This document shows, one piece after another, positions 1 to 31,966 of a stretch of DNA of 32,000 nt. How positions within the stretch are numbered: the stretch's first letter is position 1; every line of letters begins with the position of its first letter. The DNA is from Halogeometricum borinquense DSM 11551. GTDB taxonomy: Archaea; Halobacteriota; Halobacteria; Halobacteriales; Haloferacaceae. Under the pieces are notes generated by a model. That model searched no databases. It was not told the DNA's origin and was given only the letters and a program-made list of their open reading frames with translations. Location: assembly GCF_000172995.2 (NCBI RefSeq), contig NC_014729.1:270001-302000 (forward strand), read 5' to 3'. The translations under genes were made by a program, and so were the position numbers.

Positions 1-713
1 AGAGCGTCTTCATCTACGACGCCGCCGCGGGCGCAGTTGACGAGGTAGCCGCCGCCCATCAGTTCCAACTCCTCAGTCGAGATGAGATCTTCCGTCTCCG
101 GCGTCAGCGGCGTGTGGACCGTCAGGAAGTCCGCACGTTCGAGGCATGCCTCGAACTCGACGAGTTTCGCACCGAGACGTTCGGCGCGTTCCTCGCCGAT
201 GTACGGGTCGTACGCGACGAGGTCCATGCCGATGCCGTCGAGACGCTTTGCGACCTCTTGACCGACGCGGCCGAGACCGACGATACCCAGCGTCTTGGCG
301 TTCAGTTCGGTTCCGAGGTAGTCGCCCTTGGCCCACTCGCCCGTTTTGAGTCGCGCGTGCGCTTGCGGGATGGAGCGTGCGGAGGCGAACGCCATTGCCA
401 CGGTGTGTTCGGCGGCGGCGCGGACGTTCCCCTCGGGTGCGTTAGCGACGATGACGCCGTGGTCGGTGGCGGCGTCGATATCGATGTTGTCTACGCCGAT
501 GCCCGCGCGTCCGACGATGACGAGGTCGGATGCGGCCTCGAACACCGCGTCGGTCACTTCCGTTCCGGAGCGAACGACGAGTGCGTTCGCGTCCGCGACA
601 GCGTCCAACAGTGCGTCGCCCGTTACGTCGTAGGCAGTTTCGACTTCGTGACCCGCTTCACGAAGGCGTTCCAGACCCGCATCGTCGATGGGGTCCGTCA
701 CGAGTACCTTCAT
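1..713 (-). CDS. serA: D-3-phosphoglycerate dehydrogenase, N-terminal ~237 codons (3' end lies beyond the left window edge)
   Basis: Reverse-complement translation from the ATG at 713..711 reads MKVLVTDPIDDAGLERLREAGHEVETAYDV...VGRAGIGVDNIDIDAATDHGVIVANAPEGN...KTLGIVGLGRVGQEVAKRL (GxGxxG NAD fold)...FLTVHTPLTPETEDLI. The ORF is absent from the track because it has no stop inside the window. It is divergent from serB. Confidence 0.85.
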   Translation of the reverse strand, partial: MKVLVTDPIDDAGLERLREAGHEVETAYDVTGDALLDAVADANALVVRSGTEVTDAVFEAASDLVIVGRAGIGVDNIDIDAATDHGVIVANAPEGNVRAAAEHTVAMAFASARSIPQAHARLKTGEWAKGDYLGTELNAKTLGIVGLGRVGQEVAKRLDGIGMDLVAYDPYIGEERAERLGAKLVEFEACLERADFLTVHTPLTPETEDLISTEELELMGGGYLVNCARGGVVDEDA

Positions 714-8247: not shown

Positions 8248-9183
8248 TCAGCTACCGGCCGCAGTTCGTGCTTCCCGGCGCGCCTGTTCGACGGACTTGC
8301 CGTCGCGGACGATGGCGTCTACGAACAGCTCTCCCGCTTTGTACGACGACCGAACCATCGGGCCGGAGGCGCAGTAGAGGAATCCTAACTCGTCCTCGGC
8401 CACTTGTCGCCACGTCTCGAACGCGTCGGGATGGACGTACTCGAACACGTCGAGATGCGTCCGCGACGGTTGCAGGTACTGTCCCAGCGTCACTACGTCC
8501 ACATCGGCCTCGCGGAGATCAGACAGCGTCTGGTAGATCTCGTGGTCGTACTCGCCGAGACCGAGCATGATGCTCGTCTTGGTGTAGATGTCCGACTCGC
8601 GTTTGACCTGTTCGAGAACCGACAGCGATTGCTCGTAGTTCGCGCGTCGATCGCGGACCGGCCACTGGAGACGTTCGACCGTCTCGATGTTGTGCGCGAT
8701 GACATCCGGTTTCGCGTCGATTATCTTCCGGACCGCTTCCTCGTCGCCCTGGAAGTCGGGGATGAGTACTTCGACGAGAATGCTCGGGTCGCGCTGTTTG
8801 ATCTCGCGGATGGTCTGTGCGAAGTGTGATGCGCCTTGATCCGGCAGATCGTCGCGGTCAACGGATGTGAGGACGACGTAGTCCAGTCCGATTTCGGCCA
8901 CTGCCGCGGCGACGTTCGCTGGTTCGTCGGGATCCAACGGCTCCATCCCACCGGTCTGCACGTCGCAGAAGTTGCACCCGCGCGAACACCGGTCGCCCAT
9001 CAGCATGAACGTCGCTGTGCCGGGACCGTCGCGTCCGCTCCAACACTCGCCCATGTTCGGGCAGTTCGCTTCCTCGCAGACGGTGTGTAAGTCGCGGTCT
9101 CGGAGCGTCTGCTTGATGTCAGTGAAACGTCGCCCCGACGGCGGACGCATCTTCAACCAGTCGGGCTTCCGCCTGCCGCTCAT
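8248..9183 (-). CDS. lipA: lipoyl synthase (radical SAM)
   Basis: 311 aa. N-terminal cluster CEEANCPNMGEC and radical-SAM CSRGCNFC motif. Lies directly upstream of its lipoyl-protein client operon. Confidence 0.95.
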   Translation of the reverse strand: MSGRRKPDWLKMRPPSGRRFTDIKQTLRDRDLHTVCEEANCPNMGECWSGRDGPGTATFMLMGDRCSRGCNFCDVQTGGMEPLDPDEPANVAAAVAEIGLDYVVLTSVDRDDLPDQGASHFAQTIREIKQRDPSILVEVLIPDFQGDEEAVRKIIDAKPDVIAHNIETVERLQWPVRDRRANYEQSLSVLEQVKRESDIYTKTSIMLGLGEYDHEIYQTLSDLREADVDVVTLGQYLQPSRTHLDVFEYVHPDAFETWRQVAEDELGFLYCASGPMVRSSYKAGELFVDAIVRDGKSVEQARREARTAAGS

Positions 9184-9460
9184 ATCTCACCGTTCGGCGG
9201 GGAGGTAAAAAACGTGAGGATTATTTTGAGTAGTATGTCGATTAGCTGGCCAAAGCAACGGTATCTGGGAACCTGTTTCAGCGGTTTCGAACGATATCCT
9301 CGGAGAGGTTCACTGTAGATCCGGCTATTGTCTCCACTCCAGAAGCGTTGTCTTCGAAAAGTCACGAGATTCAGTTAGGTGATCGGATTCTGGCAGGGGC
9401 ACCACGAAGCTCGTCATCCTTCACTCACTTCGGTACACTGTCGTAGCCACGAAACGAACA

Positions 9461-9468
9461 ATTATATT
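9461..9468 (+). promoter_or_regulatory. TATA-box-like element (attatatt) upstream of the DUF4157 gene
   Basis: It lies about 27 nt upstream of the ATG at 9494, the spacing expected for a leaderless haloarchaeal transcript. Confidence 0.4.
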
Positions 9469-9493
9469 GGGTGTATGTCATTTTTGGATAGGA

Positions 9494-11077
9494 ATGGGAT
9501 TTCGATCTGTGGATAGGCGGGCGGACAAGAGTGATCACTCTTCTTCTGTCCCATCTATTCAAGAGCTGACGCAAGACTCTGATCGTAGCCGCGGTGGCGG
9601 TTCTCTCACACCGCAAGGGCGCGAATCTCGGTTCGGTCTCGACATGTATATGGATGGGCTGGAAGTCAAAGTCCAGCGTCTCGTCAGGAGTCATGGCGCA
9701 GACCAAGTCCGGGATTGGGCTGATGAAGGGATGACTGTCGATACCATGGGTAAACCGCGCGACATGCGTGCGTTCCGCGAACGCCAGCAGGGACGCTCTG
9801 CCGAAGTCCCAAAAGACATCGAACGCCGGAACGCTAAATCCGTTCAACGGAGTCGCGGCGCGCATCACGAAGCCTCGAAAGCCGGTGACACAAAAGTACC
9901 TGACTTGGTGCGAGACGTTATCTCCTCTCCGGGGCAGACGCTCGAAACCTCGATTCAGCGCACGATGGAGGAACGGATGGGCGACAACCTAGGTGATGTA
10001 CGCATCCATACCGGTCCGTTGGCCGCCAAAGCCTGCGAGGAAATCAACGCGCGTGCGTTCACCGTCGGAAATCACATCGCGTTCAATCACGGCGAATACG
10101 ACCTAAGTTCGGCGGAAGGCCAGCACGTCCTCGCTCACGAGTTAGCGCATGTGAGACAGCAGACGGGTGGTGCCGTGTCGTTGCTCCCTCAAGAAGGCAA
10201 GCTAGAAATTGACCCAGACAAACGTCTGGAGCGGGAAGCCGAAGAAACCGCTCAACGTGTGATGAAAGGGGGGAAACTCGGCGTCTATCGGATGCACAAC
10301 TCCAAGGTGCACGTTCAGCGATTCCCGAACGACGAGGACGTTCGGGAGACAACTGACGGAGTGGGTGCGCATGGGATCCAGGTTCCAGAGTACGAGAATC
10401 TAGATCTGGAACAGTTGTTCGAGTCGTTCGAGGGGAACAGGAAGAAAGCAGTCGAACAAATCAGACAGAACGACGATCTCTGGACCTCACTGCTCCGTAC
10501 GATCGCAATGGACGTCATCCAGAGTTCGATTGAGGCGAATGGAACCAACGTAATCGAGGACGCACTCGATCGATATCACTGTAACATCGTTCAGCACGGA
10601 CACGACCCCGTTCGATTCATGACTGGTGAAGAGGCCAACGAGTGGCACCTCGAACTCAATCCGAACGACGAACGGCCGCACAAGCCAGACTGTATCGCCT
10701 TGGAGTTCAAACCGGCCAGCGAAGACCGCCTGTACAAAGTGACGAAAGAAGGAAGAAAACTGGGGTCCTTCTTGGCACGCGAAGAAACGATTACATCGGA
10801 AGATGATCGGGAAGCGATTCTTGATGTCCTCGGACTGAAAGAAATGTGGAGTGATTACGATATGGTGTCTCAGTTGTCGATAACCGGCGAAGAAACAGTC
10901 TCAGTTTTGTCTAGCGTCGTCGGTACCATGACGGACGACTCACCGGGAGTAATTGAGCGAGAGGGAGAGCCAATCGAACGTCCTGGTGGGGAAGAACAAT
11001 TGTGGCTCAGTGATTTCTTCCCAATGGAGCAATTCGAGATGGTCGGTCCACTGGACGACTTCCAAGGAGGAAAATAA
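9494..11077 (+). CDS. DUF4157 (zincin HExxH) domain protein with divergent C-terminal domain; putative polymorphic-toxin-like effector
   Basis: The ORF contains PGQTLETSIQRTMEERMGDNLGDVRIHTGPLAAKACEEINARAFTVGNHIAFNHGEYDLSSAEGQHVLAHELAHVRQQ (nt ~9929-10171; HELAH at 10136-10150) followed by LEREAEETAQRV, which is the DUF4157 signature. About 300 further residues have no motif I can name with certainty. The track start at 9467 is a TTG. I prefer the ATG at 9494; an alternative ATG is at 9644 (MYMDGLEVKVQRLV). Confidence 0.85.
   Translation: MGFRSVDRRADKSDHSSSVPSIQELTQDSDRSRGGGSLTPQGRESRFGLDMYMDGLEVKVQRLVRSHGADQVRDWADEGMTVDTMGKPRDMRAFRERQQGRSAEVPKDIERRNAKSVQRSRGAHHEASKAGDTKVPDLVRDVISSPGQTLETSIQRTMEERMGDNLGDVRIHTGPLAAKACEEINARAFTVGNHIAFNHGEYDLSSAEGQHVLAHELAHVRQQTGGAVSLLPQEGKLEIDPDKRLEREAEETAQRVMKGGKLGVYRMHNSKVHVQRFPNDEDVRETTDGVGAHGIQVPEYENLDLEQLFESFEGNRKKAVEQIRQNDDLWTSLLRTIAMDVIQSSIEANGTNVIEDALDRYHCNIVQHGHDPVRFMTGEEANEWHLELNPNDERPHKPDCIALEFKPASEDRLYKVTKEGRKLGSFLAREETITSEDDREAILDVLGLKEMWSDYDMVSQLSITGEETVSVLSSVVGTMTDDSPGVIEREGEPIERPGGEEQLWLSDFFPMEQFEMVGPLDDFQGGK
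11066..11071 (+). promoter_or_regulatory. Shine-Dalgarno-like GGAGGA 5 nt upstream of the immunity-candidate ATG
   Basis: Sequence ccaaGGAGGAaaaTAATGg. The toxin stop TAA (11075-11077) shares one nucleotide with the ATG at 11077-11079. Confidence 0.6.
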
Positions 11078-11415
11078 TGGCAAAAATAGAATACGATGGC
11101 CGGGAACTGACGGTCGGTACCCAAACAGTTGTGCTTCGTCACAAGATTGGCCAGGTCTTGGAAGAAGATGGGATAATCCTCGTGGTCCTCTCTCCGTCAC
11201 AGACGGAGGGCCGTGACCAACGTAATCTGCTGGCGTTTGACGAGCAAGGAAACAAACTGTGGGAGTCTGAGATTCCGGAGCACTCGGAGCGCCACATGTT
11301 TGGAGAGATATATAAAGAGAACGGAGATATCATTGGATGGAGTTGGAACTCCAACGAGTACAAAATCGATTTAGAGACTGGCGCACTCGAAAACATCGGC
11401 TACGGCGGGAAGTAA
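11077..11415 (+). CDS. small cytoplasmic protein, candidate cognate immunity/antitoxin protein
   Basis: 112-aa ORF translationally coupled to the DUF4157 gene by the TAATG overlap and SD. It shares the same low-GC codon usage. No signal peptide or TM segment. Beta-rich sequence with a blade-like NLLAFDEQGNKLWE motif. Confidence 0.7.
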   Translation: MAKIEYDGRELTVGTQTVVLRHKIGQVLEEDGIILVVLSPSQTEGRDQRNLLAFDEQGNKLWESEIPEHSERHMFGEIYKENGDIIGWSWNSNEYKIDLETGALENIGYGGK

Positions 11416-11456
11416 TGACATTTGTAAAATCGAATTGAACTGCTTCCTGAAAGTGG

Positions 11457-11532
11457 GCGTTACCCCGTCCGAAGAGATCGACCAGCACTCGATATATGTC
11501 AACAAAACAATTCCATCAGATGGGGGTAACGC
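11457..11532. repeat. 10-bp perfect inverted repeat gcgttacccc ... ggggtaacgc separated by 56 nt
   Basis: Arms at 11457-11466 and 11523-11532, read directly. Located 42 nt downstream of the immunity-candidate stop, in AT-rich non-coding DNA. Confidence 0.5.
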
Positions 11533-11979
11533 TTGGCGGTACGGTGAGCCGACAAAATAGGCTGAAGGAAGCTTAATAAATGTGGCAGATTAGTTATGAG
11601 GAAGAAGAACAAAAATATCCATATTGGCTATTAAATGTCTAAGGCTCCTTTTATCGCTGCTGACTCTCACACCAAAAAACCGTGACACAGTTATCACAAT
11701 TTCGAAATACTCATACCTGAGTAAATCTGAGTGTGGGGTATGAACTGGAAACACCGCCGCGACCGAACGAAGGCAGAGTCGAAGAAAGAGGAGACGAAGA
11801 CCGGCACGAAGTGGTCGTTCATCGCCGCCGCAGTCGGCGCTGCGTAATTCGATTTTCCCTCTGTTCCACCGTCCGCCGAGCGATTGCGCTCGACCGCGTG
11901 AAGAAACGCCTTTTAGTTCGTAGGTCTGGGTGTCGCGTATGACTCTCGCTCTCGCGTTCCGCCGTCGGAGGTCTCTCGC

Positions 11980-14340
11980 GTGAAGGTCGAATCGGTCGTC
12001 CCCGAGTTCGCTGACGCCTTCGGTTTCGACGAGTTCAACCGGATGCAACGGGAGGCGGCCCCCGCCATCTTAGAGCGCGACGAGAACGTCGTCGCGGCCG
12101 CGCCGACCGCGAGCGGGAAGACGGCGCTCGCCGAGTTAGCGATCTGTCGCGCGCTCCGAAACGACGGCACCGCCCTCTTCATCGCCCCACTCCGCGCCCT
12201 TACGAACGAGAAGGAGTCCGAGTGGGAGCGCTTCGAGGAACTCGGCTACTCCGTCTACGTCGTCACCGGCGAACGCGATCTGAATCCCCGGCGCGCCGAA
12301 CGCGCCGACATCCTCGTGATGACGCCGGAGAAGACGGACTCGGCGACGCGAAAACACGAATCCGCCCGCTACTCGTTCATTACCGATGTCGACTGCTGTG
12401 TCATCGACGAAGTCCACCTCCTCGATTCGGACACCCGTGGCGGCGTCCTCGAAGTCACCGTCTCGCGCCTGCGCCGTATCTGCGACCCGCGCGTCGTCGC
12501 CCTCTCGGCGACGATGCCGAACGTCGAGGATGTCGCAAACTGGTTGGACGCGCCGCCGGAGACGACGTTCGAGTTCGGTGACGACTATCGCCCCGTGGAC
12601 CTCCACGCGGGCGTCAAGACGTACTCGCACGGCGAGAACTCCTTTGCGGACAAGTACCGACGGCTCTACCGCGCTATCGACCTCTCCGAACAGCACATCC
12701 GCGACGGCGGTCAGGCCCTCGTTTTCGTCTCCTCGCGGCAGGACACTGTCCGCGCTGCCGGGAAAGCCCGCGACGAACTCGGCAAGCGCGACATCCCTAT
12801 CGGCGCGCGCGGTGACTACGACTTCCACAACGAGGCCAAGGAGTTGAGCAACGATTCGCTTCGCAAAGCCGTCCCCGACGGCGTCGGCTTCCACCACGCC
12901 GGGTTGGCGAAAGACGACCGCGATAAAGTCGAAGCGTGGTTCAAAGAAGGGAAGATTCAGCTACTCTTTTCGACCTCGACGCTGGCGTGGGGGGTCAACC
13001 TCCCGGCGCGGTGCGTCGTCATCCGCGATACGAAGTACCACGATCCACTCGAAGGCGAGGTGGACATCTCGCCGCTGGACATCCTCCAGATGCTCGGCCG
13101 CGCGGGACGCCCTGGATACGACGACGTGGGGTACGGTTGGGTCGTCTGCGACCGCTCGGACGCCGATAAATACCGCCGACTGCTCCGCGAGGGCAAGGAG
13201 ATCGAGTCGCGCCTCGCGGAGGACCTCGACTCGCATCTCAACGCCGAGATTGCGATGGGAACTATCGGCGACCTAGAGGACGTGATGTCGTGGTTGCAGA
13301 CGACGTTCTACTACCAGCGCGCGCGTTCGAAGCCGAACGAGTACGATTTCGACGGCTTGCGAGAACGCGTACGCGAGACGCTCGAATCGCTCGTCGCACG
13401 CGGATTCGTTGAAATGGAGTCTGACCTCTCTATCGAGGCGACGCGACTCGGCCGTCTCGCCTCGAAGTACTATCTCCGCCTCGATACCGCCCGTCGATTT
13501 GCCTCGCTTTGTGACCGCGACACCATCACCGACGAGTCGATTCTGGAGACCGTGGCTGGGGCCGCAGAGTTCCACGACGTGTCGGCGCGGCAGTCCGAGA
13601 TGGACGCCGTCGATTCGGTTCTCACGGGCGTGGACACGACGCTCGAAGACGGCCCGCGGAAGGTACTCGCCATCCTGTACGCGGGGATGTCGAACAGCAC
13701 CCCCTCTGACCTCCGGTCGGATGCGTGGGTCATCCGACAGAACGGGCTACGACTGCTTTCAGCACTCAGAGAGTTCGTTGATGCCTTTGCCGGCCCTCGC
13801 GCCGCCAATCTCGCCCGCCGTGTCGAGGCCCGCGTCGAACACGGTGTCTCGCGCGATGCCGTTGCTCTCACTGCCGTAGACGGTATCGGACCGAACCGTG
13901 CGAGCAAACTCGCCACGGGTGGCCTTCGCTCCCCGCGAGATGTGGTTGAAGCCGGAACCGCCGAACTCACACAGGCTGGACTTTCGGATGGCGTGGCAAA
14001 GCAGGTAGTGCAGAACGCGCGCAACTTCCCCGATATCGACATCGCGTGGGGTGACTTCCCAGACTGCATCGGAACGGGTGAAAACCAGATGTGCGAGGTT
14101 CGCGTCCGCAACCGCGCGGGCGGTGCGACGGTCGGCATCCGCGTCACTGCTGTCGCCGGCGAGACGGGTGCTGACGAGGCGGAAATGACGACGAAACGGA
14201 CGTATCTCTCGGACGAGACTGCCGTCCACGTCGGGGTCTTCGGCGCACCCGCAGACGAGGTGACGTACCGCGTGGAAGTGACGTTCCCCGACGACCCGCT
14301 TCACCCGATTACAGAGACACGAACGGTTCGGGTGTCGTAG
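11980..14340 (+). CDS. Ski2/Brr2-like DEVH-box helicase with C-terminal Sec63-type module (Hel308 superfamily)
   Basis: 786 aa. Motif I AAPTASGKT, motif II DEVH, LSATMPN, HHAGL, TSTLAWGVNLPA, QMLGRAGRPG. This is followed by a winged-helix/ratchet/HhH-like region and a ~110-aa beta-rich tail. The start is a GTG at 11980; the next in-frame Met is 21 codons downstream. Confidence 0.88.
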   Translation: MKVESVVPEFADAFGFDEFNRMQREAAPAILERDENVVAAAPTASGKTALAELAICRALRNDGTALFIAPLRALTNEKESEWERFEELGYSVYVVTGERDLNPRRAERADILVMTPEKTDSATRKHESARYSFITDVDCCVIDEVHLLDSDTRGGVLEVTVSRLRRICDPRVVALSATMPNVEDVANWLDAPPETTFEFGDDYRPVDLHAGVKTYSHGENSFADKYRRLYRAIDLSEQHIRDGGQALVFVSSRQDTVRAAGKARDELGKRDIPIGARGDYDFHNEAKELSNDSLRKAVPDGVGFHHAGLAKDDRDKVEAWFKEGKIQLLFSTSTLAWGVNLPARCVVIRDTKYHDPLEGEVDISPLDILQMLGRAGRPGYDDVGYGWVVCDRSDADKYRRLLREGKEIESRLAEDLDSHLNAEIAMGTIGDLEDVMSWLQTTFYYQRARSKPNEYDFDGLRERVRETLESLVARGFVEMESDLSIEATRLGRLASKYYLRLDTARRFASLCDRDTITDESILETVAGAAEFHDVSARQSEMDAVDSVLTGVDTTLEDGPRKVLAILYAGMSNSTPSDLRSDAWVIRQNGLRLLSALREFVDAFAGPRAANLARRVEARVEHGVSRDAVALTAVDGIGPNRASKLATGGLRSPRDVVEAGTAELTQAGLSDGVAKQVVQNARNFPDIDIAWGDFPDCIGTGENQMCEVRVRNRAGGATVGIRVTAVAGETGADEAEMTTKRTYLSDETAVHVGVFGAPADEVTYRVEVTFPDDPLHPITETRTVRVS

Positions 14341-24509: not shown

Positions 24510-24735
24510 ACCGGCCAACGCCGTTCTTCGCTCGGCGCAGTTGTTTCTCTCTGCATCTGTTGCCCGTCTCACCGGCTCATCAGCGACGGTGCAAGCAAAA
24601 CTCGGTCCGCTTCCCGGACACGGAAATAGTGCTGTCTGAATATCCCGACATGTCTAGTTTTGAGGAAAATAACTCAAGAGAATCATGCATGATATAAAAT
24701 TATCTCCAGATATTTTCTATGGAATTAGGGAAACG

Positions 24736-24743
24736 TTTAGTAT
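24736..24743 (+). promoter_or_regulatory. TATA-box-like element (tttagtat) about 26 nt upstream of the ATG at 24765
   Basis: The spacing fits a leaderless transcript. It is embedded in a ~150-nt strongly AT-rich block. Confidence 0.4.
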
Positions 24744-24764
24744 CTCTTCGACTCGCTATCGTTC

Positions 24765-25967
24765 ATGAATGATTCTGATTACCAGTTTGAAACACTCGCG
24801 GTGACGCACGGCGAACGTCAACGTCCTGCCGAGGGTGTCGAGGACGTGGCTGTGCCCGTCCACCTCGCCTCGACGTTCGCGGTGCCCGAGATCGACCCCG
24901 ATGCGTCGCTGGAGTCGCTCGATCCCGACGCGGGCGAGTATCTCTACTCACGTCTCTCGAACCCGACGCGGAATGCGCTCGAACACCGTATCGCCGCGCT
25001 CTGTGGGGGCGATCACGCACTCGCATTCGCCTCGGGAACCGCAGCCATCGTGACCGCTATCTCGGCCGCCGTCCAACCCGGCGACCACATCGTCGCCTTC
25101 GATGACCTGTACGGCGGTACGAAGTCGATGCTCTCCGATCTTTTCGAGGATCGACTGAACGTCAGCGTCTCGCTCGTCGATGCGCGCGACACCGACACTG
25201 TCGCTGCCGCGATGCGCGAGGAGACATCGCTCGTCTGGATGGAGACGCCGACGAATCCGCTTCTCAGACTCTGTGACATCGAGGCTATCGCCGCTATCGC
25301 CGACGAATACGGAGCGACGTTCGGCGTAGACAACACGTTCGTCGGCCCGCACTTCCAGCGACCGCTCGAACTCGGCGCGGACGTGGTCGTCCACTCGACG
25401 ACGAAGTACCTGAACGGTCACTCCGATTCTATCGGTGGGGCGCTGGCGACGAACGACGAGGCGTACGCCGAGGAAATGACGTTCCTCCAGCGCGTCGGGA
25501 TGGGGAACATGCTCGCGCCGTTCGACGCGTACCTCACTCTGCGCGGACTGAAGACGCTCCCGCTTCGGATGGAGAAACACGCCTCGAACGCGCAGGCTGT
25601 TGCGGAGTTCCTCGCAGACCACCCAGCGGTCGAAGCGGTCCACTATCCGGGACTAGAATCACACCCGCAACACGACCTCGCCTCCCGGCAGATGTCGGGC
25701 TACGGCGGCGTCCTCTCTATCGAACTGGATACGGATTTAGACGGCGTCGCACGGTTCGTCGCCGCACTTGAACACTTCCCGCTGGCGGTCAGTCTCGGCG
25801 GCGTCGAGTCGCTCATCGAACATCCGGCCTCGATGACCCACTCACCGCTCTCGCAGGAAGAACGGGACATGCTCGGAATCACCGATAGTCTCCTGCGTCT
25901 CTCTGTCGGCGTCGAACACGAAGCAGACTTGCTCTCGGACCTTTCGGACGCCCTCGACGTTATCTGA
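24765..25967 (+). CDS. Cys/Met-metabolism PLP-dependent enzyme (cystathionine gamma-synthase/lyase or O-acylhomoserine sulfhydrylase family)
   Basis: 400 aa. YSRLSNPTR, the PLP-lysine motif STTKYLNGHSD and C-terminal LRLSVGVE, the family signature. Confidence 0.88.
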   Translation: MNDSDYQFETLAVTHGERQRPAEGVEDVAVPVHLASTFAVPEIDPDASLESLDPDAGEYLYSRLSNPTRNALEHRIAALCGGDHALAFASGTAAIVTAISAAVQPGDHIVAFDDLYGGTKSMLSDLFEDRLNVSVSLVDARDTDTVAAAMREETSLVWMETPTNPLLRLCDIEAIAAIADEYGATFGVDNTFVGPHFQRPLELGADVVVHSTTKYLNGHSDSIGGALATNDEAYAEEMTFLQRVGMGNMLAPFDAYLTLRGLKTLPLRMEKHASNAQAVAEFLADHPAVEAVHYPGLESHPQHDLASRQMSGYGGVLSIELDTDLDGVARFVAALEHFPLAVSLGGVESLIEHPASMTHSPLSQEERDMLGITDSLLRLSVGVEHEADLLSDLSDALDVI

Positions 25968-31177: not shown

Positions 31178-31237
31178 AGGTGATGATCGCTGTGCAGTGT
31201 CTCTTTCGTCCGAGGCGAGTCGTTCCATCGGACGCCG

Positions 31238-31435
31238 TCAGAAGTCGTGTTCGACTTCGTCTGGATCAGCCTTCTGGATGATAATCTTGCCGTCCCGGAC
31301 TCGCACGAACACCTCGTCGCCGATTTCCATTCCGGCAACGGCGAGTTCGTCTTCGTGGAGGTTCACGTGGACATTATGGTACTCGCCGTTCTCGTCTTTC
31401 GCGCCACTCGGGCTGAGCTTCTTTTTCCGGACCAT
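31238..31435 (-). CDS. small conserved protein, possible SpoVT/AbrB-like DNA-binding fold
   Basis: 65 aa. Basic N-terminus MVRKKKLSP, GDEVFVRVRDGKIIIQKA resembling the AbrB swapped-hairpin motif, and an acidic tail. Same strand as pyrD, 60 nt upstream of it. Confidence 0.5.
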   Translation of the reverse strand: MVRKKKLSPSGAKDENGEYHNVHVNLHEDELAVAGMEIGDEVFVRVRDGKIIIQKADPDEVEHDF

Positions 31436-31651
31436 CGGGGGTCTCTCTGTTCGATGCTTCGCCGTAGGATATACATAAGTGTTGTCTACCCGCTCCCCAC
31501 CTTATTAAAAAACAACGCTGATTTCCCCGATTGCGCTCGTTTTCGATCTCGGAATCTGCCGCTATTTATATACACCTCGCCGCCGCCCCCCGTTTTTCGC
31601 CGATATATTTATGGCGGACCATGTGTTCGGTTGCCATGGAGGTCAAAAATC
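31436..31651. promoter_or_regulatory. AT-rich divergent promoter region with several TATA-like elements
   Basis: tatttatata (31564-31573) and atatatttat (31603-31612) face the MC1 gene. ttattaaaaaac (about 31502-31513) and atacataag (about 31470-31478) face the small minus-strand gene. GGAGGT lies 8 nt upstream of the MC1 ATG. Confidence 0.4.
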
Positions 31652-31966
31652 ATGGTACGCGAGGACGGTAAACGGAACTTCGTACTACGTGAGGAGAATG
31701 GCACGGAGTCGAGTGTCTTCTCTGGAAGTATGCCCCGCCAAGCCGCCTTGAAGGCAGCTCGCCGTCTCGATCCGGTCGATTCGGAAGATAAGGCGCGAGA
31801 GCAAGCAACAGAGATTCGTCTCCGCGAGAAAGGCACCGACAAAGTACACATCTTCGACGCGTGGGCGTGGGTAGACGACGCGCCGGACGACAAGCCGGAC
31901 TGGATGGAGGGTGACATCACGAAGGGGAACGTCTCAAAGCAGGGGATCGAACACCTCGAAGAATAA
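31652..31966 (+). CDS. non-histone chromosomal protein MC1
   Basis: 104 aa. MVREDGKRNFVLREENGTESSVFSGSMPRQAALKAARR...IRLREKGTDKVHIF...APDDKPDWM matches the MC1 family pattern known from Methanosarcinales and Halobacteria. The track ORF (31247..) is trimmed to the ATG at 31652. Confidence 0.8.
   Translation: MVREDGKRNFVLREENGTESSVFSGSMPRQAALKAARRLDPVDSEDKAREQATEIRLREKGTDKVHIFDAWAWVDDAPDDKPDWMEGDITKGNVSKQGIEHLEE

Follow-up and report, generated by a model that had tools for sequence, protein, structure and literature searches.

A low-GC islet between lipA and a helicase gene in Halogeometricum borinquense, very probably a strain-variable orphan type VI secretion effector–immunity cassette

In the literature, the DUF4157 domain ('PVC-metallopeptidase') is a marker of polymorphic toxins delivered by contractile injection systems (CISs) (Zhang et al. 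2012; Geller et al. 2021). The first description of an archaeal type VI secretion system (T6SS) dates from 2024, when the CIS encoded on plasmid pHBOR03 of Halogeometricum borinquense (Hbor_38640-38890) was shown to act as one (Zachs et al. 2024, Sci Adv 10:eadp7088; PMC11566945). Five DUF4157 proteins, including Hbor_02990, were present at significantly lower levels in the secretome of a sheath mutant (cis2::novR) than in that of the wild type, and transfer of Hbor_02990 into Haloferax volcanii succeeded only when Hbor_03000 was co-expressed (PMC11566945). Consequently, the function of these two genes as a T6SS toxin and its immunity partner is already known, and their locus is one of four experimentally validated toxin–immunity pairs. 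The same publication is silent on the composition of the locus, the borders of the islet, strain variation and the activity of the toxin. Here we analyse the DNA that carries the pair, a low-GC islet located between the lipoyl synthase gene lipA and a helicase gene, in a 32,000-nt stretch (the window) of the chromosome of H. borinquense DSM 11551.

Taken as a whole, the islet is very probably an orphan T6SS effector–immunity cassette of H. borinquense. It is called orphan on account of its chromosomal site away from the CIS cluster of pHBOR03: its neighbours across the 32 kb are housekeeping genes, and the proximity to a CIS cluster that is typical of such modules, without being obligatory, was not found. 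The finding is ordinary in kind, an orphan effector–immunity islet with atypical GC content being what a T6SS specialist would expect. Secretion, toxicity and immunity come from the published experiments. To these we add the composition of the locus, the exact 2,442-bp indel with its borders and empty alleles, the absence of a canonical insertion signature, a corrected start of the toxin gene and the polymorphic-toxin anatomy, as seen in domain architecture and paralogue pattern. A fold match leads further to a predicted NAD(P)+ glycohydrolase (NADase) activity, and the genomic comparisons bring independent support for DUF7957 as the partner of the toxin and for allele swapping within the species.

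The low GC content of the islet is real and far beyond chance. A sliding-window profile of the window contains one sustained trough only, at about 9200-11900, where 400-nt windows have GC fractions of 0.44-0.58 (44 per cent in the lowest). The first-pass annotation, made from the letters of the sequence, had placed an abrupt drop at 9184-11900; this segment has 52.2 per cent GC against 62.7 per cent in the rest of the window, so that the drop is confirmed, while the hand counts given with it (65-67 per cent outside, 32-50 per cent inside) overstate both sides. The refined indel, 9233-11674, has 52.1 per cent GC, about 8 standard deviations under the mean of 494 windows of the same length elsewhere (62.9 per cent, sd 1.3, minimum 60.0). 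The GC content of third codon positions (GC3) also deviates largely: it is 0.59 in both open reading frames (ORFs) of the islet, versus 0.73-0.83 in every credible gene of the window and 0.79 in each of the flanking genes, lipA and the helicase gene, in agreement with the earlier remark that the two ORFs lack the G/C third-position bias of the other genes.

A similar bias accompanies related modules elsewhere. The DUF4157 modules of Haloferax sp. S1W have GC3 values of 0.69 and 0.62 versus 0.81 in host genes, and that of Halovivax has 0.68 and 0.57, the two flanking host genes measured there having 0.73 and 0.93. Low GC3 thus travels with DUF4157 cassettes. This fits cassettes that reside in the haloarchaeal pool of mobile or plasmid genes and speaks against one recent import from a donor of low GC content. 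In the plasmid collection, no H. borinquense replicon with similar DNA was found, and the N-terminal coding half of the islet alone matched plasmids of Haloferax, Halobacterium and Natribaculum.

The islet is present in some strains of the species and absent from others. Five independent H. borinquense genomes were compared (DSM 11551, CP048739, RZHH01000002, JAXCMF010000027 and the Logan assembly of SRR26441317), which encode identical LipA proteins whether or not they carry the islet. It is present in two of the five, DSM 11551 and CP048739, the latter copy being 98.9 per cent identical to the former. In the three others the gap between lipA and the helicase gene is only about 539 bp. The blastn alignments with these empty-site loci (L086, L087 and L088) break exactly at 9232/9233 and 11674/11675. 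The true indel is therefore 9233-11674 (2,442 bp), in place of which the empty strains hold an unrelated 185-bp filler with 42 per cent GC. The left junction joins TTTTGAGTA to GTATGTCG and the right junction joins CTCACACC to AAAAAACCGTG; comparison of the islet alleles with the empty sites detected no target-site duplication at either. The acquisition is a replacement of a 185-bp spacer and not a clean insertion. Of the extent first proposed, 9184-11900, the core 9233-11674 stands, and the margins, 9184-9232 and 11675 onward, are native intergenic DNA. The segments are as follows.

9184-9232, no strand: native DNA upstream of lipA, on the lipA side of the left junction; 49/49 positions identical in the five H. 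borinquense strains
9233-11674, plus strand: toxin–immunity islet of 2,442 bp in place of the 185-bp spacer, delimited by blastn against L086, L087 and L088
11416-11674, no strand: 3' non-coding tail of the islet, 42.9 per cent GC, missing from the empty-site strains
11675-11979, plus strand: native DNA upstream of the helicase gene, including a 35-aa ORF; 305/305 positions identical to empty-site locus L086

The segment 9184-9232 contains a block, AAAAACGTGAGG, that is conserved in Haloferax, and 11675-11979 is conserved both in Haloferax and in Halogeometricum rufum, Halogeometricum pallidum and Halogeometricum luteum. Since both segments are native, the cassette fills the gap between two divergent promoter regions and leaves both intact. 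The 3' tail has no similarity to any fetched locus and no Rfam match, and neither the non-coding ends of the islet nor the 185-bp filler contains relics of otsBA or of other fetched loci. Scans of metagenomes with patterns from the junction flanks gave no matches. A compensatory hairpin in the filler was considered and rejected on inspection; the antisense ORFs 9425-9868 and 11590-12048 were likewise rejected as genes, as they have no family matches and overlap better-supported features.

The islet holds only the DUF4157 gene and the small ORF coupled to it, as initially described, and neither carries a mobility domain. No integrase, transposase or recombinase ORF was found in it, no terminal direct or inverted repeats bracket 9233/11674 and no Rfam family matches the islet region. 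There is no tRNA gene near it; the only one in the window, a tRNA-Ser (CGA) at 108-199 (plus strand), lies 9 kb away and is unrelated. The first-pass annotation had noted no integrase, transposase, tRNA target or terminal repeats, and this was borne out, as was the lack of a target-site duplication once the junctions had been defined by strain comparison. Of the hallmarks of a canonical genomic island, atypical composition and presence/absence are thus seen here, and an integrase, a tRNA or att site, repeats and a duplication are not. The locus had also been interpreted as an old or non-canonical acquisition of a conflict module into a housekeeping neighbourhood. The non-canonical character, the conflict module and the housekeeping setting hold; great age cannot be demonstrated, since the islet segregates within the species.

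The coding content of the islet can be summarized as follows.

9451-9480, plus strand: promoter-like block with a TATA-like TTATAT about 30 nt before the ATG at 9494; promoter function putative
9494-11077, plus strand: toxin gene Hbor_02990, 527 aa, identical to WP_241432376.1 (527 aa) and ADQ65909.1
9494-10321, plus strand: N-terminal delivery module, residues 1-276, ending at VHVQR, defined by PF13699 and paralogue identity
10322-11074, plus strand: variable C-terminal toxin domain, residues 277-527 (251 aa), with a predicted TNT/Tse6-like fold (AlphaFold2/Foldseek)
11077-11415, plus strand: immunity gene Hbor_03000 (ADQ65910.1), 112 aa, DUF7957, from sequence and a precomputed PF25857 annotation

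The GenBank annotation of the toxin, ADQ65909.1, comprises 448 aa only: it starts at 9731 (M80) and omits 79 residues (9494-9730) conserved in paralogues. Of the 14 aligned homologues, which include paralogues and orthologues from several genera, 12 start at the position of the 527-aa form, mostly with MGFRS, and the 30-nt block GAAACGAACAATTATATTGGGTGTATGTCA is also conserved upstream of the Haloferax sp. S1W paralogue. The shared start position and the conserved TATA-like block thus support the 527-aa form, and the position of the block suggests that the transcript would be leaderless. A scan for sigma-70 promoters and intrinsic terminators yielded nothing useful, these models not being applicable to archaea. 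The published construct began at M80 (448-aa form; primer ...CATATGACTGTCGATACCATG) and so lacked the 79 conserved residues (PMC11566945). Consequently, the demonstrated toxicity is independent of these residues, and any role that they may have in loading would lie outside the reach of that construct. The corrected 527-aa model is thus of importance for work on the loading of DUF4157 cargo.

The DUF4157/eCIS_core domain (PF13699) of Hbor_02990 was detected with E 4.7e-30 (104 bits versus a cutoff of 22) at about 9941-10171, and its zinc motif HELAH (HExxH) corresponds to residues 215-219 of the 527-aa form (10136-10150). In a database search, 442 relatives share only the first ~52 per cent of Hbor_02990, at 55-86 per cent identity; among them are many paralogues in H. 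borinquense, Haloferax larsenii, Haloferax elongans, Haloferax sp. S1W and Natrinema. The N-terminal module, in which about 150 conserved residues precede DUF4157, is 75-86 per cent identical to many paralogues. The C-termini of the relatives differ, some being GH-E nuclease, deaminase or colicin D domains, and the alignment is nearly perfectly conserved through VHVQR (residue 276), where conservation is lost. The combination of a conserved N-terminal and a variable C-terminal part is the signature of polymorphic toxins. Three traits of the DUF4157 type are seen in Hbor_02990: the HExxH domain, the swapped C-termini and a downstream immunity gene. The N-terminal module presumably couples the protein to the injection apparatus.

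The C-terminal domain is rare. No Pfam, NCBIfam or PDB sequence match was found for it or for its 11 relatives, and a PDB search with the profile of the domain as well as a BFVD fold search with the toxin domain returned noise only. An exhaustive HMMER search of 1.84 billion representatives detected no more than 12 proteins at E <= 1e-3; apart from Hbor_02990 itself, none is recognizable as a DUF4157 fusion and none has a Pfam domain. The AlphaFold2 model built on this HMMER alignment (pLDDT 84.9, pTM 0.81) consists of a helical bundle, formed by the first 90 residues of the domain and having no PDB match, followed by an alpha/beta domain. The four best Foldseek matches in PDB, and the sole confident ones, are three Tse6 chains (4zv4_C, 4zv4_D and 4zv0_A) and Rhs1-CT (6xtd_A), with probability 0.93-1.0, E 3e-3 to 3e-2, TM-scores on the target of 0.48-0.53 and 12-16 per cent identity. 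The remaining hits have probabilities <0.05; Tne2 and TNT themselves, which have a palm-domain fold in common with Tse6 and Rhs1-CT, are not among the structures listed. Both Tse6 and the Serratia Rhs1 protein of entry 6XTD are T6SS-delivered NAD(P)+ glycohydrolases. They belong to the TNT-like family, whose key residues are an Arg, an aromatic residue and a Gln (R757/Y765/Q822 in TNT; 6XTD deposition paper). In the alignment of our family the invariant positions are R/K139, F/W150 and Q226 (domain numbering), equivalent to K415, F426 and Q502 of the full-length protein: the basic residue is K in the window protein and R in most relatives, the aromatic residue follows at +11 and the Gln a further +76. 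K415, F426 and Q502 are thus candidate catalytic residues on the strength of their conservation. The resemblance of the modelled fold to Tse6 and Rhs1-CT leads us to predict NAD(P)+ hydrolysis as the killing mechanism, and we give the prediction that the domain kills by NAD(P)+ depletion about an even chance.

The ATG of Hbor_03000 overlaps the stop codon of the toxin gene (TAATG) and a GGAGG lies 8 nt upstream of this ATG; read from this arrangement, Hbor_03000 is translationally coupled to the toxin gene. PF25857 is assigned by precomputed annotation to Hbor_03000 and to all five of its relatives (our local Pfam copy, which may lack the model, gave no match). DUF7957 is rare, with only six clusters among 5.8 billion proteins. 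The AlphaFold2 model of Hbor_03000 (pLDDT 85.9) is all-beta, resembling two to three beta-propeller blades, and matches BamB and WD40 proteins; no known immunity fold was matched. Halovivax cerinus carries a DUF4157–colicin D toxin gene with a colicin immunity gene, followed by four tandem DUF7957 genes (locus L093, 4224-7577). Two of these four are preceded by about 25 codons encoding the C-terminal tail of a toxin of the Hbor_02990 type (...RQYRFTGRLSPGQFEMDGTLEALLEGDK). As judged from its sequence, this array has the classic arrangement of displaced toxin tips with orphan immunity genes. The relic tails thus associate DUF7957 with this toxin domain in a genus other than Halogeometricum.

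The single-nucleotide polymorphisms (SNPs) of the flanks divide the five H. borinquense genomes into two haplotypes: A, with DSM 11551 (islet) and RZHH01000002 (empty), and B, with CP048739 (islet), JAXCMF010000027 and SRR26441317 (both empty). Islet and empty alleles each occur on both flank haplotypes with identical junctions, a four-gamete pattern that requires at least two precise allele replacements. Synonymous divergence (dS) between the flanking genes of A and B is 0.024-0.10 (median ~0.067); for the genes of the two islet copies it is 0.028, below most flanking genes, and the copies differ by about 1 per cent overall. The two versions of the filler differ at 20 of 185 positions (10.8 per cent). 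As near as 58 bp to the left junction and about 11 bp to the right one, the SNPs sort by genomic background rather than by presence or absence of the islet. Four sites lying no more than ~55 bp from the right junction separate the islet-bearing B strain from the empty ones; they may represent a short co-conversion tract. We infer that recombination between the homologous flanks brought about the replacements, its tracts stopping where heterology begins. Genes for other DUF4157 toxins persist in the empty-site strains; what these strains appear to lack is therefore specifically the Hbor_02990 weapon and its antidote, not the whole system. One such toxin gene (P0005, 517 aa) is preceded by a conserved series of seven genes, none of which has a Pfam match; they encode about 945-1062, 98, 97, about 930, 126, 119 and 127 aa (L097 and L098, 1-5912). 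The series was found in one islet-bearing and one empty-site strain and may be part of the CIS cluster.

These data bear on several other explanations of the islet. It might have been inherited vertically from an H. borinquense ancestor and deleted in some strains, as could be suspected from its presence at exactly the same junctions in two strains with diverged flanks and from a dS in its genes indicating that neither of them gained it very recently from the other. However, the empty alleles cannot be scars left by a deletion, since a homologous 185-bp filler, itself diverged and missing from the islet alleles, is common to them. The GC3 contrast, 0.59 versus 0.79, marks the islet genes as compositionally foreign, Haloferax and three other Halogeometricum species do not have the islet, and its dS is below that of most flanking genes; we consider vertical inheritance improbable. 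The junctions common to two backgrounds would also result from site-specific integration and, together with the composition and the strain distribution, could point to the remnant of a canonical mobile element such as an insertion sequence, an integrative plasmid or a provirus. Such an origin is very improbable in view of the lack of any integrase, transposase or other mobility ORF, target-site duplication, terminal repeats, and tRNA or att-like target, of the replacement of 185 bp instead of a clean insertion, and of non-coding ends that are not common to the Haloferax S1W module. It is hardly credible, finally, that the pair is an intracellular addiction module of the type II toxin–antitoxin kind, with DUF4157 as an internal protease. 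The two-gene, translationally coupled toxin/antidote layout is what such a module would have, and the published toxicity and rescue assays were intracellular; against this stand the significant depletion of the protein from the sheath-mutant secretome (PMC11566945), the status of DUF4157 as a marker of CIS-delivered polymorphic toxins, and the C-terminal swapping among paralogues, typical of exported polymorphic toxins.

As concerns the toxin activity, the C-terminal domain might instead catalyse a different reaction known from this broad fold class, such as ADP-ribosylation of a protein or a nucleic acid, or act by an unrelated mechanism. The TM-scores of only ~0.5 and the low sequence identity, the helical bundle without a PDB match and the Lys in place of the usual Arg all favour this possibility. 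The fact that the sole confident structural neighbours belong to NADase entries, three in number, as well as the fit of the invariant Gln and aromatic residue to the NADase pattern, speaks for NAD(P)+ hydrolysis, and we regard another activity as the less probable alternative. Several points weigh against our own account of the locus. The polarity of the indel cannot be rooted, as other Halogeometricum species carry otsBA in this interval and the filler does not align convincingly with the Haloferax spacers. The role of DUF4157 in loading is putative in every system, and crossovers as close as 58 bp and ~11 bp to the junctions are not easily accounted for by simple homologous recombination. 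Behind the NADase assignment stand a single predicted model and Foldseek E-values that are marginal (3e-3), the searches revealed no sequence-level link between the C-terminal domain and any NADase family, the H. borinquense toxin has Lys where TNT-like enzymes use Arg, and the candidate residues K415/F426/Q502 are tentatively likened to those of TNT by conservation pattern. A broader reading seems doubtful to us: that the lipA–helicase spacer would be a dedicated cassette-exchange site, served by an undescribed targeted mechanism independent of integrases. A complete effector–immunity unit and the 185-bp spacer would be swapped there with precision on two or more genomic backgrounds, the crossovers falling within 58 bp and ~11 bp of fixed junctions. 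In this reading no archaeal T6SS NADase would precede the toxin, which would be the founder of a toxin family and be accompanied by an immunity fold that is likewise new.

If the islet is an orphan T6SS effector–immunity cassette, as we favour, it could function as follows. The 276-residue N-terminal module of Hbor_02990, DUF4157 included, would couple the toxin to the injection apparatus, and its private 251-residue C-terminal domain would kill by NAD(P)+ hydrolysis. Stop/start coupling would yield Hbor_03000 from the same transcript, which is probably leaderless, and Hbor_03000 would neutralize the toxin in the producer cell. The cassette sits, in replacement of the 185-bp spacer, exactly between the core promoter of lipA and the promoter of the 35-aa ORF and helicase gene, and homologous recombination in the flanks would move the presence/absence allele between genomic backgrounds.

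The interval is also variable beyond the species. A scan of LipA-containing contigs yielded at least eight haloarchaeal loci, and the other Halogeometricum species were reached through their helicase proteins. The flanking genes and the inserts of the otsBA type are listed below.

8248-9183, minus strand: lipA (lipoyl synthase), left flank; Pfam Radical_SAM and LIAS_N; GC3 0.79
11980-14340, plus strand: Ski2/Hel308-like superfamily II helicase, right flank; Pfam DEAD, Helicase_C, Sec63 and wHTH; GC3 0.79
L094 618-4488 (H. rufum), L095 1723-5567 (H. pallidum) and L096 959-4803 (H. luteum): otsBA-type inserts

In Haloferax mucosum and Haloferax sp. S1W, lipA and the helicase gene are adjacent and divergent, 581-586 bp apart, and the islet is lacking. 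The two genes are thus neighbours in two Haloferax and three H. borinquense strains, which answers the question raised by the first-pass annotation of whether they adjoin elsewhere; this is not universal in the genus, as H. rufum, H. pallidum and H. luteum have otsB-otsA, a gene for a hypothetical protein of 153-159 aa and a BAT/HTH_10 regulator gene in an interval of ~4.3 kb, and H. luteum has an extra LysE gene adjoining the helicase gene. In Natrialba and Halocatena the interval holds, with other genes, one for a multi-pass membrane protein of ~490 aa, which we take by eye to be a MATE-type transporter. The presence of otsBA in three Halogeometricum species and of other genes in Natrialba and Halocatena identifies the interval as a site of recurrent gene flux.

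Other features of this neighbourhood deserve mention. Just 5' of the helicase gene, a 35-aa ORF (MNWKHRRDRTKAESKKEETKTGTKWSFIAAAVGAA; 11740-11847, plus strand) is preceded by a promoter-like block. Both are strongly conserved in Haloferax mucosum, Haloferax sp. S1W, H. rufum, H. pallidum and H. luteum, and the ORF, called as a gene in several assemblies and without a match to any Pfam or NCBIfam family, probably encodes a genuine small protein. Directly downstream of the same helicase gene, Haloferax sp. S1W has another DUF4157 paralogue, of 447 aa, and a 326-aa ORF (L006 4567-6893, minus strand), at a position where Haloferax mucosum has only ~680 bp. Together with the islet, the S1W module makes two toxin cassettes in this neighbourhood, in two genera. 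In the window, AT-rich DNA of an appearance unlike an inserted element occurs at 31230-31966 (54-57 per cent GC), 5' of an ORF whose C-terminal ~100 residues may resemble the archaeal chromatin protein MC1, and in a shorter intergenic dip at 24540-24765.

The natural sister strains of H. borinquense without toxin and immunity, among them the empty-site strain of assembly GCA_004150395.1, are ready prey for competition experiments within the species. If the NADase prediction is true, it would provide the first mechanism for the killing of one archaeon by another.

The cassette can be compared with several known systems. Like the DUF4157 toxins of extracellular CIS (eCIS/PVC) loci, Hbor_02990 has an N-terminal HExxH-containing DUF4157, a variable C-terminal toxin and an adjacent immunity gene; unlike them, it is delivered by a membrane-anchored archaeal CIS of the T6SS type, is encoded far from the CIS cluster and has ~150 extra conserved residues before DUF4157. 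Tse6–Tsi6 of Pseudomonas aeruginosa and Rhs1-CT(Db10)–RhsI1 of Serratia marcescens are its best structural matches: the basic, aromatic and Gln residues conserved among the relatives of Hbor_02990 may correspond to theirs, and in both pairs a T6SS-delivered toxin has its cognate immunity gene directly downstream. Hbor_02990 differs from Tse6 and Rhs1-CT in its carrier (DUF4157 instead of PAAR/Rhs), in the extra helical bundle and in having no detectable sequence similarity to them. Tsi6 is helical, unlike the all-beta model of DUF7957. The published NADase immunity proteins are mutually unrelated (6XTD deposition paper). With the orphan T6SS modules and arrays of bacteria, such as the orphan immunity genes of Serratia Rhs1, the locus shares a strain-variable content, a presumed recombinational toxin exchange and, in Halovivax, arrays with relics of toxin 3' ends. 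It departs from them in its archaeal host, in the exchange of the whole pair with its putative promoter and in its site, a promoter-to-promoter spacer between two housekeeping genes.

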